A stretch of 64,000 nt of DNA from Candidatus Cloacimonadota bacterium (GTDB taxonomy: Bacteria; Cloacimonadota; Cloacimonadia; JGIOTU-2). Shown piece after piece: positions 22,711 through 64,000 of this stretch. The stretch covers positions 32,001 through 96,000 of the forward strand of contig JBNGBT010000009.1 in the NCBI GenBank assembly GCA_049903315.1. Direction: 5' to 3'. Both the position numbers and the translations under genes were made by a program. Each line of letters opens with the position of its first letter. Positions within the stretch are counted from its first letter, which is position 1. Under the pieces are notes generated by a model. The model worked only from the letters and a program-made list of their open reading frames with translations. It was not told the origin of the DNA and made no database searches.

Positions 22711-24438
22711 ATGATAAAAGGTGTTCTTTTCATAGTAATTTTATTTCTCTTTTCTCCTCTCAAAGCGTATGAAACTACTCCCCCTGTTATCCACAAACCT
22801 TTTGATGAATCCGCTATTACACAACCTCGTTATATCCCTCTGCAACCTCCCTCGGGACTTGAGATCGTTAATCCTGCAGAATTCGGCAGATCCGATGGCG
22901 TCATACTTGCGTGGCCAGGATGGGGGAATGAGATCATCGGAGATATCGCTTTTGAGGTTGCTCAGGACTATAAAGTGTTCATGGTTGTTGCCAATGATTA
23001 TTATGAAACAGTTGCCGCTGCATATCTCACTTCTGTGGGTGTGAACATGGCAAATGTGTCCTTTATTCATGATTCCACGATGAACAATTCCGGTATGTGG
23101 ATTCGGGATTATGGACCCTTCTGTATACATGATGACGGCAAACGTGGAATTGATGATTTCGTTTGGAGCGGCAATTACGGCATCGATCTTATACCCTACA
23201 CTATTGCAGACACGTTTGACCTCCCTCTTTATCACAGCCCTGTTATCCATCATGGCGGCAATCATATATCAGACGGCAACGGCATGGGCTTTTTCTCTAC
23301 AAATATTTTCAACCATAATACTTCCTACACCCATACTCAAATTAAGCAGGAATTCAAGGATTTCTTCGGTATAGACTCCATGGTCGTGTTCGCACCAATG
23401 AATGGTGATGGCACCGGGCATGTGGATATGTTCTGCAAATTATTGAATGATACGCTTCTCATCGTCGGAGAATATGAAACTCCAAGTGCAAGTTACCCCG
23501 GCGATTATGATCTTCTAAATAATCTGGCTGCTTATCTTGGCACACTTACCAATATTGACGGCAGAAAATTCAGGGTGGAAAGAATCCCGATGCCTGCTTA
23601 TTATTATGGCGGTCCCGCAGGAACAATAAACTACACCTATACAAATTCACTTATTATTAACAACAAGGTACTTGTGCCCGTGTATGGATTTGATATGGAT
23701 GCAGCCGCATTACAGGTTTATGCAGATTTGATGCCCGACCATGAAATAATCGGCATCGATTCTGAATTTATCATCCAGTACTGGGGTGCAGTTCATTGTA
23801 TTACTAGTGAGCTTTTCAGCAACAATCCATTGATAGTACTTCATCATGCAATAGATACTCTTATAGCGGGTGTAGCTCCGCAGATAAAATTCCGGCTTAA
23901 TCCAAAATTTGCTGTGTCGGGAGGATCTGTTTTTTACAAATTAGACTCAGGCATTTTTTTTACTGAAGTTATCGCAGAACTGAACGGAGGAGTATGGACT
24001 GCGAGTTTGCCTGCGATGTCAGAGAATTTCTCTTACTATATTGAAGGTTCTTCTGTTTCCGGCAGTTATAATTTCGAAACAACTCTCCCGGAAAATGCCC
24101 CCTGGGAAACCTTCCCTGTTCTTGTGGAAAATGTTGCGGCTGACAATGAACATGCTTCACCATCCATATGTCTTACCAACTACCCAAATCCTTTCAATCC
24201 ATCAACGACGATCTCATTCAGCATTCATGATCCGGGAAAAATAGAAGTGAGTATATATAATATTAAGGGGCAAAAAGTAAAGAATCTGCTCAAGGAGCCA
24301 AAAGAATCCGGCACATACTCAATAGTTTGGAATGGGAGAGATGAAAAAGAACAAGCGGTTGAGAGCGGAATATATTTCATCAGGCTTGCCACAGAAAAAG
24401 GGCATACCACAATAAAACGAATGATATTGATGAGATAG
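22711..24438 (+). CDS. Secreted agmatine/peptidylarginine deiminase family protein with FlgD/T9SS-like CTD
   Basis: PAEF, WIRDYGP, GGN, TGHVD and GAVHCIT motifs. C-terminal NYPNPFNPST...SGIYF. Confidence 0.88.
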   Translation: MIKGVLFIVILFLFSPLKAYETTPPVIHKPFDESAITQPRYIPLQPPSGLEIVNPAEFGRSDGVILAWPGWGNEIIGDIAFEVAQDYKVFMVVANDYYETVAAAYLTSVGVNMANVSFIHDSTMNNSGMWIRDYGPFCIHDDGKRGIDDFVWSGNYGIDLIPYTIADTFDLPLYHSPVIHHGGNHISDGNGMGFFSTNIFNHNTSYTHTQIKQEFKDFFGIDSMVVFAPMNGDGTGHVDMFCKLLNDTLLIVGEYETPSASYPGDYDLLNNLAAYLGTLTNIDGRKFRVERIPMPAYYYGGPAGTINYTYTNSLIINNKVLVPVYGFDMDAAALQVYADLMPDHEIIGIDSEFIIQYWGAVHCITSELFSNNPLIVLHHAIDTLIAGVAPQIKFRLNPKFAVSGGSVFYKLDSGIFFTEVIAELNGGVWTASLPAMSENFSYYIEGSSVSGSYNFETTLPENAPWETFPVLVENVAADNEHASPSICLTNYPNPFNPSTTISFSIHDPGKIEVSIYNIKGQKVKNLLKEPKESGTYSIVWNGRDEKEQAVESGIYFIRLATEKGHTTIKRMILMR

Positions 24439-38309: not shown

Positions 38310-39860
38310 CTACTCTTTTTTTTCTGCTGGTTTCTCTGTCAACATTAATTCGCGCTTTTTTAAGGCATTTTGTACAACCAGATATTCACTCCAGGGAACT
38401 TCCTGAGTGCCGTAACACATTGTTGTTTCGTGAGCTTTCCCACATGTAATAACCGTGTCTCCATCCTGTGCAGAAAGTATCGCTTTTTCTATTGCTTTTT
38501 TGCGATCCGGTCTCTTAAAAAAATCAATTCCTTCTCTTCTTCCTTCCTGCATGCAGCCAGCAGCGATCTCTTTTATGATCGCATCGGGTGATTCCGTACG
38601 TGGGTCTTCTGCAGTGATGTAAATCTTGTCTGCGAGCTGCCCTGCGACAATGCCCATTTCTCTCCGCTTTTGTACATCACGAAGTCCGGCACTTCCAAAA
38701 ACGACATGTATTTGACCTTTTGTGAATGTCCTAGCCGCTCGAAGGGCTTGCTCAAGCGCATTTGCCGTATGTGCAAAATCAATGATCACATTAAAATTTC
38801 CCAGCGTATGTGGGATAAGTTCCATCCTGCCTTTTATGCGCTTTAATGAATCAATTGCCGAGATGATCTTCTCTTTGGGAATATTTTGAGAATATGCAAC
38901 TGCAATTGCTGCGAGAATATTATAGACGTTATACTCTCCGAGAAGGTGGCTTGTAATTTTTAGCTTTTCTTTGGGTGTATGAACCGTAAATTTCAGCAAT
39001 CCCTCTTTTTGAAAGATATCATCAGCCCAGAAATCTGCGTTATTACTCAACCCAAAAGAAAAATGCTGACCTGCATCATATTTGCTAAAAGTGCCGTAGA
39101 TTGGATCATCATAATTGAGCACACTTATTTTAGGGATATCTTCCTTATTATTAGATAAAGAAAGAAGCTCGAATAAATGAGCTTTTGCGCTGATGTACTC
39201 CTCCCGGGATTTATGGAAATCGAGATGTTCAGAAGTAATATTCGTGAGTACTGCAAAATCATATTCGCATGCTTCCACACGATACTGTGCGAGCCCGTGT
39301 GATGAGGTTTCTATTACTGCATATTCTGTTCCGGCTTCAATCATTTCTGCCAGATATTTCTGGATTGATACTGCGTCGGGTGTTGTGGTATGAAATCCTG
39401 TTTGGAATACTGTATCTCCGATTATAGCATTTATCGAAGTTATCAAACCTGTTTTGTGTCCCGCTTCGTTCAGAATATGATGTATCAGCGTCGAAGTTGT
39501 TGTCTTTCCATCCGTGCCGGTCACACCAATGATCCCGAGCTTTCTTGCTGGAAATCCGTAAAATGCTGCGGCAAGATGAGATATTGCGTCTCTTGTATTT
39601 TTTGTTTTTATGAAAGGTATAATCTTATCATTGGGAGAATACGCTTCGTCTTCAAACAGAACTGCTGCTGCTCCTTTTTCAATTGCTTTATGTATATAAT
39701 TATGCCCGTCGGCATCAACTCCTTTGATGGCCACAAACAGGTTGCCCATCTCAAGATTTCGCGTGTCAAAAGAAATGCCGGATATATTAATTTCGTGGAT
39801 GGATTTTTTGCCCAATAAAACATAATCTTTCAGATTTTCAAGGAGTTTTTGTAACGTCAT
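38310..39860 (-). CDS. murE: UDP-MurNAc-L-Ala-D-Glu:diamino acid ligase
   Basis: GVTGTDGKTT, TTPD, ETSSHGL, EHLDFH, DFAHT and FGSAGLRD motifs. Specificity motif EDPR. Confidence 0.92.
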   Translation of the reverse strand: MTLQKLLENLKDYVLLGKKSIHEINISGISFDTRNLEMGNLFVAIKGVDADGHNYIHKAIEKGAAAVLFEDEAYSPNDKIIPFIKTKNTRDAISHLAAAFYGFPARKLGIIGVTGTDGKTTTSTLIHHILNEAGHKTGLITSINAIIGDTVFQTGFHTTTPDAVSIQKYLAEMIEAGTEYAVIETSSHGLAQYRVEACEYDFAVLTNITSEHLDFHKSREEYISAKAHLFELLSLSNNKEDIPKISVLNYDDPIYGTFSKYDAGQHFSFGLSNNADFWADDIFQKEGLLKFTVHTPKEKLKITSHLLGEYNVYNILAAIAVAYSQNIPKEKIISAIDSLKRIKGRMELIPHTLGNFNVIIDFAHTANALEQALRAARTFTKGQIHVVFGSAGLRDVQKRREMGIVAGQLADKIYITAEDPRTESPDAIIKEIAAGCMQEGRREGIDFFKRPDRKKAIEKAILSAQDGDTVITCGKAHETTMCYGTQEVPWSEYLVVQNALKKRELMLTEKPAEKKE

Positions 39861-40942
39861 TACTCTTCCAAAGAATCAGAGATCTTGCCCTTTTTAATGA
39901 GGCTGCGGAGCGATACATAGGTTTTTATTCCGCCGTTCATAAGCTTGTACCAGAATGGCTTGAATACATGATCCTGCATGCCGATGAATTTCCTGAACTC
40001 ACCACCGAATCCCTTTTTGAAGCGATACACGCCAAAGAGCGGATGTCCCTCGTGGGGATGAGCAGGCACACCCCAGAGGTCATATATTTTATATCCCTGC
40101 TTCTGAGCCCACTGTATCACATGCCAGTGCAGCGCCTGGTTCGGCATGACATTTCGATATTCATTCGAGGATGCGCCGTACATGTACCAAATTTTTTGTC
40201 CAAATGCAAAGATATACACCCCAGCAACAGGAACGTTCTTATAATATGCCATAAATAATCGCACCATCCCTTTGTCTGCCATTTGCTCGATTACTCGTTT
40301 ATAGTACTCAAAATTATGTATGATGAATGCATCGCGCCTTGCAGTGGTTTCATAAATATCATAAAATTTCTGTGCGCCTTCCAGCGAAGTTTCTTCTCTT
40401 ACTTCTACTCCTTTTTTCATCGAAAGCCGGATATTGTACCGTGTTTTTGATTCGCATCCTGCAAGAATATCCTCGGCTGATTTCGTGAGATCAAGAAAGT
40501 ATGTTGCTCTTGGTTGTATCTGCTTTTTTACAAAATGAAAATTATGCTCTTGCAAAATACTGAGTGCCGTTTCATTATCTTCATCAATTTCAGGATCGAT
40601 TTTCAGAACAATTGCATTATATTGTTTGGCAATCTGGGAAATTTTATCCATCAGTGCAGAGAAATGTTCGCGTTTTGTAACATCGATAACCGGGCCTCGC
40701 GGTGCATAGAACAGGCATTTTCCTATATATGGAATTTTCCGTTTTTGTATAGATATACCGCCTACTATTTTGCGGTCCTCGAAAACGGCAATTCTGATCG
40801 GCACCCAGCCGGAAATTCTCTTTATCTCTCCCCATTCATAGGATTGGATGATCGGACATTCCGGCGTGGAAGCCACGAAGGTATTCCATGCGGAAAATTC
40901 TTCTTCGGTCTCTAAAATCTTGCATTCAATATTTACATTCAT
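39860..40942 (-). CDS. FemABX family aminoacyl-tRNA-dependent peptidoglycan bridge transferase
   Basis: QSYEWGEIK, YAPRGP, KTRYNIR, YMYGAS, YDLWG and GVYRFKKGFGG motifs. Confidence 0.92.
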   Translation of the reverse strand: MNVNIECKILETEEEFSAWNTFVASTPECPIIQSYEWGEIKRISGWVPIRIAVFEDRKIVGGISIQKRKIPYIGKCLFYAPRGPVIDVTKREHFSALMDKISQIAKQYNAIVLKIDPEIDEDNETALSILQEHNFHFVKKQIQPRATYFLDLTKSAEDILAGCESKTRYNIRLSMKKGVEVREETSLEGAQKFYDIYETTARRDAFIIHNFEYYKRVIEQMADKGMVRLFMAYYKNVPVAGVYIFAFGQKIWYMYGASSNEYRNVMPNQALHWHVIQWAQKQGYKIYDLWGVPAHPHEGHPLFGVYRFKKGFGGEFRKFIGMQDHVFKPFWYKLMNGGIKTYVSLRSLIKKGKISDSLEE

Positions 40943-60606: not shown

Positions 60607-60693
60607 TGGTACCAGAGGCCGGACTTGAACCGGCACGGGTAAAAACCCGAGGGATTTTAAGTCCCTTGTGTCTACCAATTCCACCACTCCGGC
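60607..60693 (-). tRNA. tRNA-Leu(TAA)
   Basis: GCCGGAGTGGTGGAATTGGTAGACAC...CTTAAAA loop, long variable arm, GGTTCAAGTCC, encoded CCA. Confidence 0.96.
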
Positions 60694-60705
60694 ACGTAAT
60701 AAATT

Positions 60706-60779
<74 letters not shown>

Positions 60780-60788
60780 AGAAAAAAA

Positions 60789-60863
60789 TGGAGCGGGAAA
60801 CGGGATTCGAACCCGCGACATCTACCTTGGCAAGGTAGAGCTCTACCACTGAGCTATTCCCGC
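60789..60863 (-). tRNA. tRNA-Gly(GCC)
   Basis: GCGGGAATAGCTCAGTGGTAGAGC...TTGCCAA loop, GGTTCGAATCC, encoded CCA. Confidence 0.96.
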
Positions 60864-60958: not shown

Positions 60959-62719
60959 TTAATATCTTAATATCGGCTCTTTATCAAAATAATATCCTAA
61001 AATTTTACCGGCGAGTATTGCTGCAATGTCCGCTCCGGATCCGCCCTGTTCCACAAAGATAAGAACGGCTATCTCTGGATCATTCATTGGCGCTACTGCA
61101 ACGAACCATGCATGGGTGTCTCCATAATAATTTTCTGCGGAACCTGTTTTTCCACCAACCATAATATCTTTTACCCGGGCCATTCCACCTGTTCTTCCCT
61201 TTGCATTGACGGCTTCATACAAAGATTGTTTCAAGAGATCAAGGGTGTTTTGCGAAATTGGCAATCTCATTTGAGGATATTTATAGGGTTCTGTGATTTC
61301 ATCCCGAATTGCATAATCTACAAAATGCGGACGATGCACAATTCCATTGTTTGCTATACCAGCATAAAAACAAGCCATTGATAGGGGTGTGAGAAGCACT
61401 TCACCCTGTCCGATAGTCAGGTTCAGCAGGTTACCTCTTGTCCAGCCCAATTTCCCATAATTTTTGTCATACCATTCTGAGGTTGGAAAGAAACCTTTTC
61501 TGCTTCGGATTTGGTCAACAGGAATGCTTTCCAGAAGATTGCAGTCTTTTACAAATTCCATAAAATCGTTAAGGTCCATCATTTCTGCAATTTTATAAAA
61601 ATATGAATCACACGACTCTCTTATTGCATCGAGAAGATTAACTTTTCCGTGCCCATCCTCTTTCCAACATCCAAAAAACCTACCCCCATATTCTACTCCT
61701 CCTTCGCAATCAACGAGATTTTCATGCGGCTCGACAAGGTTTCTTTCTAGTGCATAAGCTGCTACAACAAGCTTAAAAACGGATCCAGGCGGGTATGCTG
61801 CGCTCATAGCTTTATTCAAGAGCGGATTGTTCTCATCCTCCACTATTTGCTTCCAATAATCCTCATTCATACCAGTAACGAAATTATTCGGATCATATTC
61901 CGGAGTGCTTACCATTGCCACGATCCCGCCTGTTTTACAATTCATCACAATGGCTACAGCTGAAGTATCTTTAGGGAGCAGTTGTGCAATTTTTTTTTGA
62001 AGACTTTTGTCGACCGTTAACACAAAATCTTTCCCTGGTAAAGATTGTTTTCCGGAATTTTCTTTCATGAGACCCAGTGGTTGCCCCGTTGCGTCCACCT
62101 GGATGACATCGTATCCTTTTTCACCCTTGAGCTCCGTCTCGAAACATTTCTCCAAACCAACTTTGCCAATATAATCTGTTTTTGAATAATCTCCATCTTG
62201 GAGCGTTTGATACTCCGCAGATGACATCTTTCCTACATATCCGATATAATGAGAGTTTAGGTCATAATATCTGATTGCTTCCGGTTTAATAATGACTGCC
62301 GGGTATTCTTCGCTGTGTTCCTCAAGCTTGATCGCGATTTCCATATCAACTTTATCCTGTACAAGAACCGGTGCAAATTTGAAAAACCTGTGTTTATAGA
62401 TGAGCTCAGAAATTTTCTCTACAGGAACCCCAAGATTTCCGGACAGGAAAGCCGCGACGTTGTCTGCATCTGTAATTTCATTGATATCAATATAAACTGA
62501 AAGGGATGGTATATTTTCTGTGAGCGGCTGCATATTGCGGTCATACAGGATGCCCCTGCGGGCGGGTTTTTTTATAATGCGAAAATAATTTTTCTCGGCA
62601 ATTTCTTTGTACTCATTTCCCTTTACGACCTGTATCTGAAACAAAAAATAGGTAAACATCAGAAACAAAGCCAGTACGAGAATCAATAGCTGGTCGGCTT
62701 TTTTCAGCTTCAATTTCAT
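60959..62719 (-). CDS. mrdA: Penicillin-binding protein 2
   Basis: ARRGILYDRN, YPPGSVFK (SxxK), SCD and KTG motifs. Follows mreD. Confidence 0.95.
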   Translation of the reverse strand: MKLKLKKADQLLILVLALFLMFTYFLFQIQVVKGNEYKEIAEKNYFRIIKKPARRGILYDRNMQPLTENIPSLSVYIDINEITDADNVAAFLSGNLGVPVEKISELIYKHRFFKFAPVLVQDKVDMEIAIKLEEHSEEYPAVIIKPEAIRYYDLNSHYIGYVGKMSSAEYQTLQDGDYSKTDYIGKVGLEKCFETELKGEKGYDVIQVDATGQPLGLMKENSGKQSLPGKDFVLTVDKSLQKKIAQLLPKDTSAVAIVMNCKTGGIVAMVSTPEYDPNNFVTGMNEDYWKQIVEDENNPLLNKAMSAAYPPGSVFKLVVAAYALERNLVEPHENLVDCEGGVEYGGRFFGCWKEDGHGKVNLLDAIRESCDSYFYKIAEMMDLNDFMEFVKDCNLLESIPVDQIRSRKGFFPTSEWYDKNYGKLGWTRGNLLNLTIGQGEVLLTPLSMACFYAGIANNGIVHRPHFVDYAIRDEITEPYKYPQMRLPISQNTLDLLKQSLYEAVNAKGRTGGMARVKDIMVGGKTGSAENYYGDTHAWFVAVAPMNDPEIAVLIFVEQGGSGADIAAILAGKILGYYFDKEPILRY

Positions 62720-63198
62720 TTTTGAGTAAAGCTTAGTTTAAGATGGTCTGCGAGGTATAAAAGGAGTATTATTATAAAAGAATATGCTGAATTATAGAGA
62801 GAGAGAACGATGATCTTTCCAAGCGCAAGCGCATCGCCTGTATTAAATATCAGGAATATCGCTGATGAAAGAAAAAAATAGAACAGGTTGGCGAGGATTA
62901 CCAGTACAAATCCTATCCCGATCAGCTGTCTGCTCAGTAATCTCTTGAGTCTGCTGAGGTTAAATGCTATAATGAGAAAAAGCAGGGGCGATACTCCAAA
63001 TGATGAGGGCTGATTAAGGTCAATAATTATGCCGAGGATGAATGCTAAGACAAAACCGGAAACATTCTCCCGCGTGAGGTTATAATAGATAATCAGTGGT
63101 AAAAAAAGATTCGGTATCGTTTCCCATAATCCAAATGATGCTGCAAAAAAATATTGAAAATAGACTGTGAATATGGTGACGAGAATGAGAACGATCAT
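62716..63198 (-). CDS. mreD: Rod shape-determining protein MreD
   Basis: IPNL and AFILGIIID motifs, multi-TM, directly upstream of mrdA. Confidence 0.85.
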   Translation of the reverse strand: MIVLILVTIFTVYFQYFFAASFGLWETIPNLFLPLIIYYNLTRENVSGFVLAFILGIIIDLNQPSSFGVSPLLFLIIAFNLSRLKRLLSRQLIGIGFVLVILANLFYFFLSSAIFLIFNTGDALALGKIIVLSLYNSAYSFIIILLLYLADHLKLSFTQK

Positions 63199-63875
63199 AG
63201 CTTCTCCCAAACAAGGCACAATGGCGTGAGTTCCATTTGCTGTCCCTGTGGATTATCTCCCATGATCTCTTCGAGAAGCCGGGCATTAATTCCGGCTGAT
63301 CTGCCAATAACCCACGATCCGCCTATGTCATTGATATCCATGATTGCGGCTTCGTTCCCAGTTATTTCATGAATTTTCCGGCATATCTCGTCCGTATGAA
63401 TAGGACCTTTGATAACAGTCTTGTTGTACGGCGTTACTGGTGATGTGTGTGCAGCATCGACAAGTGCCGCTTGCTTACCAGCAATGCGGTAAAAGAGTCC
63501 GTGTATTCCAAATAATTTCCCGATAGCGCCGGCAATTGCCGCTATTATAATCCTAAGGTGGCCGCACTCGTCTATTGCGCACTGCATGCTTGTTTTTGAG
63601 CGCAAGCCAACTCCATATGGTACTTTGCTTACTCCTCGCCAGAGAAGTTTTGAGAGAAGTCCGATCTTTATCTCGTCTTCCAGTACAGCCCTTCCTTGAG
63701 TGATCGCCACAGGGCTTTCGCTCATGACGATAATATCACCCGCTTTTCTTTTTCCTTCTGTATATTCAAGTACGATATTTACAATGTCGTCTTCGGGCGT
63801 TAAAATTTTTGTTTTGATGGGTTGCCTTAAATAGATTTTCGTTTCTACTGTTCTTTCTGTGATGTTATTTTTCAT
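63195..63875 (-). CDS. CofE/F420:gamma-glutamyl ligase-like protein
   Basis: PIKTKIL, GDIIVMSESPVAITQGR, IMDINDIG and DNPQGQQMELTP match the CofE-like ligase pattern. Confidence 0.75.
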   Translation of the reverse strand: MKNNITERTVETKIYLRQPIKTKILTPEDDIVNIVLEYTEGKRKAGDIIVMSESPVAITQGRAVLEDEIKIGLLSKLLWRGVSKVPYGVGLRSKTSMQCAIDECGHLRIIIAAIAGAIGKLFGIHGLFYRIAGKQAALVDAAHTSPVTPYNKTVIKGPIHTDEICRKIHEITGNEAAIMDINDIGGSWVIGRSAGINARLLEEIMGDNPQGQQMELTPLCLVWEKL

Positions 63876-63999
63876 AATTTTGAATTATCGCCACTGCCTC
63901 GATATTCGCGAGATTTACATAAGGTTCTATAGCTGCCCTTGTGAAAAGTCCATCGCTGCTTTGCTCGATCTCAACGATATTTCCAAATGGAAGTTCGGG
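63872..63999 (-). CDS. mreC: Rod shape-determining protein MreC, 3' end (partial)
   Basis: PELPFGNIVEIEQSSDGLFTRAAIEPYVNLANIEAVAIIQKL*, typical of the MreC C-terminus. Not in the ORF track. Confidence 0.8.
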
Positions 64000-64000
64000 A

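Follow-up and report, generated by a model that had tools for sequence, protein, structure and literature searches.

In the CofE structure, a domain-swapped hairpin and residue R234 contact coenzyme F420, with R234 stacking on the ring, and the acyl-phosphate mechanism of the enzyme is likened to that of MurD (PMC10861534). A chlamydial member of COG1478, CT611 or FolC2, complements Escherichia coli folC and was found through the folate operon of genomes without folC (PMC1971073, PMC4161248). The present analysis concerns a CofE-fold protein, designated X, which is 226 amino acids (aa) long and is encoded at 63195..63875 on the minus strand of a 64,000-nucleotide stretch of DNA from a Candidatus Cloacimonadota bacterium (contig JBNGBT010000009.1, positions 32,001 to 96,000), here called the window. 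The gene is present in a single copy in this genome, which is 2.96 Mb in size and 96.4% complete. Because X has its place in the mre operon and its relatives lie beside or are fused to cell-wall genes, it likely joins an amino acid or amine to a glutamate of a cell-wall precursor. Judged from gene context, some role for X in peptidoglycan is quite probable, and we propose with moderate confidence that it is a nucleoside triphosphate (NTP)-dependent ligase acting on the alpha-carboxyl of the stem D-glutamate (D-Glu).

The assignment of X to the CofE fold draws on several comparisons. X passes the hidden Markov model PF01996 with 29.7 bits against a gathering cut-off of 25, the match covering residues 20-99 only, and no NCBIfam family, the CofE model included, matches it at E <= 1. 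Sequence searches of the PDB with X or with a close alignment returned chance matches only, and a broad alignment reached CofE at E 0.06. A profile-profile comparison of the X family with five plasmid CofE-family proteins, a set led by CofE from a cofG-H-D-C-E operon, gave a probability of 98.4. The AlphaFold2 model of X (107 sequences; predicted local distance difference test score 90.2) retrieved Archaeoglobus fulgidus CofE with Foldseek at E 4.7e-8, and the five matches under 0.001 were all CofE. Aligned structurally with A. fulgidus CofE, the model gave Z 14.6 and a root-mean-square deviation of 3.1 over 181 residues; the next chain reached Z 4.8. X is predicted from this model to have the CofE fold, with A. 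fulgidus CofE as its sole fold match. The PF01996 match and the gene order in the genome confirm the original prediction of a CofE-like open reading frame (ORF) of 226 aa between mreC and mreD.

In an alignment of 67 sequences across phyla, none departs from R17, T22, G105, G126, F128, D140 and D180 or from the motif DNPxGQxxExTP (D207-N208-P209-x-G211-Q212-x-x-E215-x-T217-P218). D140 aligns to the aspartate of VDES in CofE and D180 to that of ITDTN in the A. fulgidus enzyme; these two CofE aspartates are metal ligands, and we take D140, D180 and E215 of X as the conserved acidic residues of the metal/NTP site. In both the profile and the structure alignments, X is without a 25-residue stretch at the position of the long CofE hairpin, and it ends about 20-26 residues before CofE, ahead of the F420-stacking R234. 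From its position, we infer that the 25-column gap reflects loss of the F420-binding hairpin. Since the aspartates are conserved and the hairpin and tail are missing, X appears to keep the catalytic core of CofE and to have lost its F420 cradle. Two conserved helices of the model, one basic and amphipathic (residues 72-84; moment 0.58, net charge +3.2) and one hydrophobic and basic (residues 106-123; net +2.1), would suit a membrane-bound acceptor, although with no control set this is a weak indication. These helices, which suggest membrane contact, and the tight operon linkage described below would also fit another role in the envelope, in which X is a non-catalytic partner of the elongasome or ligates a protein or polymer onto the wall. 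We give this little credence, given the invariant acidic residues of active-site type across phyla and the location of most relatives outside mre operons.

Database labels have X as an F420-0:glutamate ligase, and the CofE fold and a PF01996 score just above the cut-off agree with that label. CofD, however, was not found in 151 Cloacimonadota genomes by a search whose positive controls in three archaea matched, and CofG was not found in this 96%-complete genome, in which CofC and CofH were not searched. With these two absences, the missing NCBIfam match, an identity to CofE of 14-16% and the loss of the parts that contact F420, the F420 role was rejected, and we consider it next to impossible. 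A second possibility is that X glutamylates folates or pterins in the manner of the chlamydial FolC2, redundantly with FolC. The complementation of folC by a COG1478 member speaks for this possibility, as do purU and purH neighbours in one metagenome locus each (L118 and L130) and a gene of the pterin-binding family in this genome. On the other side, folC is present in 145 of the 151 genomes and scores 362 bits in this one, so X does not fill a FolC gap, and replacement of FolC was rejected. Among the scanned neighbours in 79 metagenome loci (see below), there is no cof gene and no folP, folB, folK, folA or folC. The pattern is the opposite of that of CT611, with its folate operon in genomes without folC, and a folate role is accordingly improbable. 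X is a member of the CofE fold but qualifies neither as CofE proper nor as FolC2.

Within Cloacimonadota, the phylum to which the relatives of the source genome belong, X was present in 125 of 151 genomes, with one copy in each apart from one split match; that of Candidatus Celaenobacter antarcticus is 91% identical. In all 29 of the other Cloacimonadota loci that were fetched, X is flanked by mreC on one side and by mreD or mrdA on the other. The loci of 80 relatives were also compared, 68 of them counted as Cloacimonadota and 12 as others. The order mreC-X-mreD was found in 65 of the 68; two of the rest are cut by contig ends and one (L096) is rearranged, with X still joined to its downstream partners (X-mreD-mrdA) behind other genes. 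A record labelled Armatimonadota (L074) has an operon of the Cloacimonadota type (mreB 66%, X 60%) and was grouped with this phylum. With start codons picked automatically, the frames of mreC and X overlap or touch in 58 of the 63 loci that could be measured (by exactly 4 nucleotides (nt), that is -4 nt, in just 4), and X and mreD do so in 43 of 59 (-4 nt in 24). An arrangement kept in 65 of 68 loci is not due to chance. Since these genomes are kin and not independent, it counts as one ancestral arrangement retained with overlapping frames.

The operon has the order mreB-mreC-X-mreD-mrdA on the minus strand, and the end of the window falls within it. The 3' end of mreC occupies 63865..64000, the whole gene extending to window-equivalent position 64632 in the genome sequence (63865-64632), and mreB lies outside the window, at the equivalent of 64663-65694. 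On the other side of X are mreD (62716..63198, 160 aa, PF04093) and mrdA, which encodes penicillin-binding protein 2 (60959..62719, 586 aa). Directly after mrdA, genes for tRNA-Gly, tRNA-Cys and tRNA-Leu (60607..60863, also on the minus strand) mark the operon boundary. The original prediction placed ATGA overlaps at both ends of X. The downstream one is a true stop-start overlap (63195-63198), as is the predicted one between mreD and mrdA (62716-62719). At the upstream end, the overlap of mreC with X is instead 11 nt long, mreC ending in ...QNYEK with its TAA stop at 63867-63865, and the TGA within the ATGA at 63872-63875 closes a 32-codon stretch in a third frame. A scan for promoters and terminators gave counts no higher than chance. 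In this genome rodA does not follow mrdA, a homologue being found on contig C7, and in another locus (L158) it does. Elsewhere in the window, 22711-24438 encodes a protein of the peptidyl-arginine/agmatine deiminase family with a C-terminal tail of secretion type.

Relatives outside the phylum were collected with a degenerate motif scan of metagenomes, which gave at least 120 matches; 80 loci were listed, of which 79 encode the X family. A Pfam scan covered 253 ORFs, made up of neighbours, fusions and some additional frames, and was then extended to ORFs missed by the gene picker. A peptidoglycan-type gene lies directly beside X on the same strand in 13 of the 79 loci: vanY in two, murB in two, murJ in three, and in one each an M23 peptidase, a PcsB-like protein after ftsEX, mreC, an LD-transpeptidase, an SH3 protein and an Alr-like racemase, the last at a distance of about 900 bp. 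Within three genes of X the count rises to 22 of 79, or 17 without the Alr-like racemases. In the present genome, 1.4% (adjacent) and 3.7% (within three) of genes pass the same tests. The partners by locus are murJ (L149, L163, L190), murB (L125, L193), murG with M23 (L130, L151), vanY (L119, L142), ftsEX (L121), LD-transpeptidase (L189) and dacA (L132), and in a quick tree the different wall partners fall in different branches. Labels of these clusters include Microbacterium, Lutispora, Flavonifractor/Lawsonibacter, Nomurabacteria, Liptonbacteria, Roizmanbacteria, Fermentibacter and Acidimicrobiales. Thus the association of homologues with cell-wall genes is found both in the mre operon of Cloacimonadota and, in 13 of 79 loci, by adjacency elsewhere. 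With folC present and CofD and CofG not found, nothing that the original prediction named as counting against it was observed. These neighbourhoods lend strong guilt-by-association support to the suggestion that X, as a predicted amide ligase, modifies a cell-wall precursor.

These neighbourhoods also bear on the possibility that X makes a soluble small-molecule amide, such as a dipeptide osmolyte or the amide of a cofactor, pantothenate-like or otherwise, in which case the mre operon would be a matter of co-expression only. Some neighbours are of a kind that this would lead one to expect, namely panD, ectB-like and argD-argF genes; the amidotransferases of the AsnB type that accompany X in some loci also score, below cut-off, against models of N-acetylglutaminylglutamine amidotransferase, and loci of the Sumerlaeota type have no match to mre, murE or femX. 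Such a role would leave unexplained both the repeated adjacency to varied peptidoglycan genes, Patescibacteria included, and the retention of X across the phylum at the level of overlapping frames, and we regard it as improbable, though somewhat less so than a folate role. The gene immediately after X encodes a panD-like aspartate decarboxylase in two loci that share a clade (L174, 721-1143; L185, 2946-3371), and beta-alanine could be the amine there.

The closest relatives beyond Cloacimonadota come from 12 loci (11 labelled Sumerlaeota and one unlabelled) and are 55-63% identical to X. In locus L051, X is followed by a GAF histidine kinase, and similar N-termini occur in six further loci. 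Two long proteins, P0121 and P0122, carry at their N-terminus an X domain 57% identical to X, together with a hydrophobic stretch; P0121 has a TPR match. Searched with X, plasmids gave no match at E 1e-3, and a distant member of the family retrieved just weak matches, mostly CofE-type proteins; viral contigs gave no match. Another branch of the CofE family does occur on Bacillus and Lactobacillus plasmids (L280, 3519-4289; L281, 3504-4229), next to shikimate dehydrogenase/TIM barrel or NUDIX genes; the flanking sequence covered contains no cof gene.

An amidotransferase of the AsnB type is fused to X in 8 of the 79 loci and adjacent in 2, and the quick tree places the fusions in two separate, supported clades. 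A search with the fused domain returned 1,009 long proteins, and an AsnB domain is present in 119 of the 120 that match best; the named carriers include Terrabacter, Intrasporangium, Terracoccus, Humibacillus, Knoellia, Flexivirga and Ornithinibacter. These fusions (P0123-P0242 and L123, L126, L133, L164, L169, L180, L181, L189) belong to Intrasporangiaceae/Dermatophilaceae and Roizmanbacteria and have no annotation beyond asparagine synthase. Two of them, L123 and L180, stand ahead of gatA, gatB and a gene for a class II tRNA synthetase. In group-B walls, such as those of Microbacterium and other Microbacteriaceae, the cross-bridge starts at the alpha-carboxyl of the stem D-Glu. The Microbacterium X sits behind rpoD, and all five loci of the Microbacteriaceae clade (L168, L192, L115, L159, L175) have an Alr-like racemase and/or a "sugar-transfer associated" ATP-grasp protein nearby, L168 having a diaminobutyrate transaminase as well. 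Racemase, ATP-grasp protein and transaminase are parts that a D-diamino-acid bridge would need, and we regard these loci as a candidate gene cluster for the group-B bridge (L168, 2-4119; L192, 1-5674; L115, 361-4035). The fusion of Intrasporangium calvum (P0162) is 33% identical to X (E 6e-32), and in the wall of this species, according to its genome paper, the bridge is triglycine and the stem D-Glu bears a further glycine on its alpha-carboxyl (PMC3035309).

The acceptor was also approached through position 3 of the stem. The single MurE of the genome, which reads EDPR where others have DNPR (38310..39860), and a FemX/FemAB-family aminoacyl transferase (39860..40942) are encoded on the minus strand of the window, outside the operon of X; this sole MurE gene lies next to femX and away from the dcw cluster (38310-40942 of the window and contig C55 of the genome). 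The best PDB match of the MurE is the L/D-lysine MurE of Thermotoga maritima. Among 28 genomes tested, strong FemX matches (E <= 4e-19) occur in four genomes of this order alone, one other genome giving a weak FemX-like match (E 7e-9), and stand-alone non-DNPR MurE is limited to the same four. Other families keep X together with a MurE of the DNPR type and no FemX; their MurE ORFs are mostly about 880-1090 aa long and are probably MurE-MurF fusions. DapF was found in both tested DNPR-type genomes of other families and was not found in three tested genomes of this order, which have the EDPR MurE and FemX. The sequences suggest that the whole order may have switched from a meso-diaminopimelate (mDAP) wall to a lysine/ornithine wall. 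Since X is kept with either type of MurE and FemX is restricted to this order, the specific link between X and the MurE/FemX locus, on which the original prediction had drawn, was not borne out and was rejected. The retention of X with both DNPR (mDAP-type) and EDPR (non-mDAP) MurE favours an acceptor common to both stems. MurT acts on the alpha-carboxyl of the stem D-Glu and so would compete with X for it; the MurT_C domain was not found in the 151 Cloacimonadota genomes.

Three clues, from I. calvum, from Microbacterium and from this indifference to position 3, point to the stem D-Glu alpha-carboxyl as the site. Set against the chemistry of this carboxyl, the presence of X fits in I. calvum and Microbacterium and may not fit in Knoellia. 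The same context of cell-wall genes would serve a different reaction, in which free D-Glu or D-Asp, activated by X at the side-chain carboxyl, is coupled to the amine of the position-3 residue or of a Fem-added residue, with the fused AsnB amidating the bridge residue. Amidation of the AsnH type would accord with the AsnB fusions, which would make an Aslfm/AsnH-like pair of a different fold, and Flexivirga and Ornithinibacter, both carriers of the fusion, belong to groups with D-Asp or D-Glu bridges. Microbacterium bridges, on the other hand, are not known to contain D-Asp or D-Glu, and in this genome a single Asp/Glu racemase was present and AsnB was not found. CofE itself handles glutamate and activates a gamma-carboxyl (PMC10861534), which is in favour of this reaction. 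It counts against it that I. calvum carries the fusion and yet has a triglycine bridge without a dicarboxylic acid (PMC3035309). As a whole, bridge formation by X from D-Glu or D-Asp is unlikely, if the least unlikely of the alternatives to ligation at the stem D-Glu alpha-carboxyl.

Under the preferred scheme of ligation at this carboxyl, X would activate the free alpha-carboxyl of the position-2 D-Glu, probably on lipid I or II, in a reaction dependent on NTP and metal. An acyl-phosphate would form, the amine would attack it, and nucleoside diphosphate and phosphate would be released, by analogy with CofE chemistry (PMC10861534); it is gene context that suggests the acceptor. The amine would differ by lineage, being glycine in Intrasporangium and, in Microbacteriaceae, a diamino acid, possibly preceded by glycine, with which the group-B cross-bridge begins; in Cloacimonadota it may be glycine or some other small amine. 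The fused AsnB may amidate the newly added carboxyl or that of diaminopimelate. Negativicutes attach polyamines to the D-Glu alpha-carboxyl (PMC10628300, PMC12826042). In the present genome, spermidine synthase and the PF02784 and PF01276 decarboxylases were not found, and a polyamine donor was rejected here; it is because of the missing polyamine genes that a small amine such as glycine is proposed for Cloacimonadota. Of 14 genomes with X, 7 have spermidine synthase, and of 7 genomes without X none has it; the difference is suggestive, but these genomes are kin; PF02784 and AsnB do not track the presence of X.

Several observations weigh against a peptidoglycan ligase. X is missing from five near-complete Cloacimonadota genomes of four genera, even when a broad profile is used, and in these mreC joins mreD; the step is therefore dispensable there. 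The peptidoglycan families for the neighbour count were chosen after looking, the baseline is too low because it is based on no more than 19 genes from a crude call of 1,821 genes in which membrane proteins are missed, and several pairs among the 79 loci are near-kin. In 57 of these loci, many of them short, there is no peptidoglycan gene within three genes, and non-wall neighbours include purU (L118), purH/purE (L130) and panD (L174, L185). The 12 loci of the Sumerlaeota type, which lack mre, murE and femX matches as noted above, include four in which X follows argD-argF (L054, L058, L079, L094). Knoellia, whose wall has direct mDAP cross-linking and is not known to contain glycine, also carries an AsnB-X fusion. 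Finally, no peptidoglycan chemistry for any Cloacimonadota was found in the literature.

In a literature search whose coverage left out most subscription journals, no report of a role in peptidoglycan or the cell wall was found for CofE, PF01996 or COG1478, and no gene family was found for the D-Glu branches (the diamine transferase, the ligase of B-type walls or group-B substitution of the alpha-carboxyl). A gene for the attachment of an amino acid or amine to the stem glutamate thus appears not to have been described before. We tentatively suggest that the X family is a peptidoglycan amide-ligase fold apart from the Mur, ATP-grasp and Fem enzymes and the single missing enzyme of D-Glu alpha-carboxyl substitution. 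If so, it would stand behind glycine and glycinamide tails, the first bond of group-B bridges and possibly the polyamine tethers of diderm Firmicutes, and the peptidoglycan of Cloacimonadota would be of a branched kind not described so far, synthesized in concert with the elongasome. The D-Glu branches, with glycine, diamines or group-B bridges, have long been known chemically, and X provides a named candidate with one invariant motif that can be tested directly in culturable actinobacteria. The proposal, if true, would add cell-wall synthesis to the cofactor reactions of the CofE fold, and it would predict the wall chemistry of uncultured Cloacimonadota and Patescibacteria and of gut Clostridia. 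It would also correct the widespread label "coenzyme F420-0:L-glutamate ligase" in organisms without an F420 pathway, a mislabelling of the family that would extend over Cloacimonadota, Actinomycetota, Bacillota and Patescibacteria.

Comparison with known systems places X as follows. Like X, the CT611 of Chlamydia is a CofE-family protein, shifted to an acceptor other than F420 (PMC1971073). CT611, compared here by description, belongs to a folate operon of genomes that lack folC, whereas X occurs alongside folC, with no fol gene among its scanned neighbours. With A. fulgidus CofE, X shares the fold, the N-terminal motif, the aligned aspartates and, presumably, acyl-phosphate chemistry. The two differ in sequence, at 14-16% identity, and X, which is without the hairpin stretch and the R234 tail, has additional basic and hydrophobic helices, the invariant DNPxGQxxExTP motif and a place among cell-wall genes; CofD was not found in the Cloacimonadota searched. 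MurT/GatD acts on the same alpha-carboxyl through an acyl-phosphate and has a glutamine amidotransferase partner, but it is of the Mur-ligase fold and its donor is ammonia. Aslfm/AsnH likewise pairs a ligase with an amidotransferase of the AsnB type on peptidoglycan, but Aslfm is an ATP-grasp enzyme that acylates the amine of lysine with D-Asp. In the glycine addition of Micrococcus, the diamine transfer of Selenomonas and Veillonella and the group-B bridge of Microbacteriaceae, an amine is likewise placed on the D-Glu alpha-carboxyl. These are known as chemistry or as crude activities, and no paper was found that links a CofE-fold gene to them; a gene for the Selenomonas transferase may have been reported. 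The glycine of I. calvum (PMC3035309) and the polyamine substitutions (PMC10628300) likewise place an amine on the stem D-Glu alpha-carboxyl, which is the reaction proposed for X.

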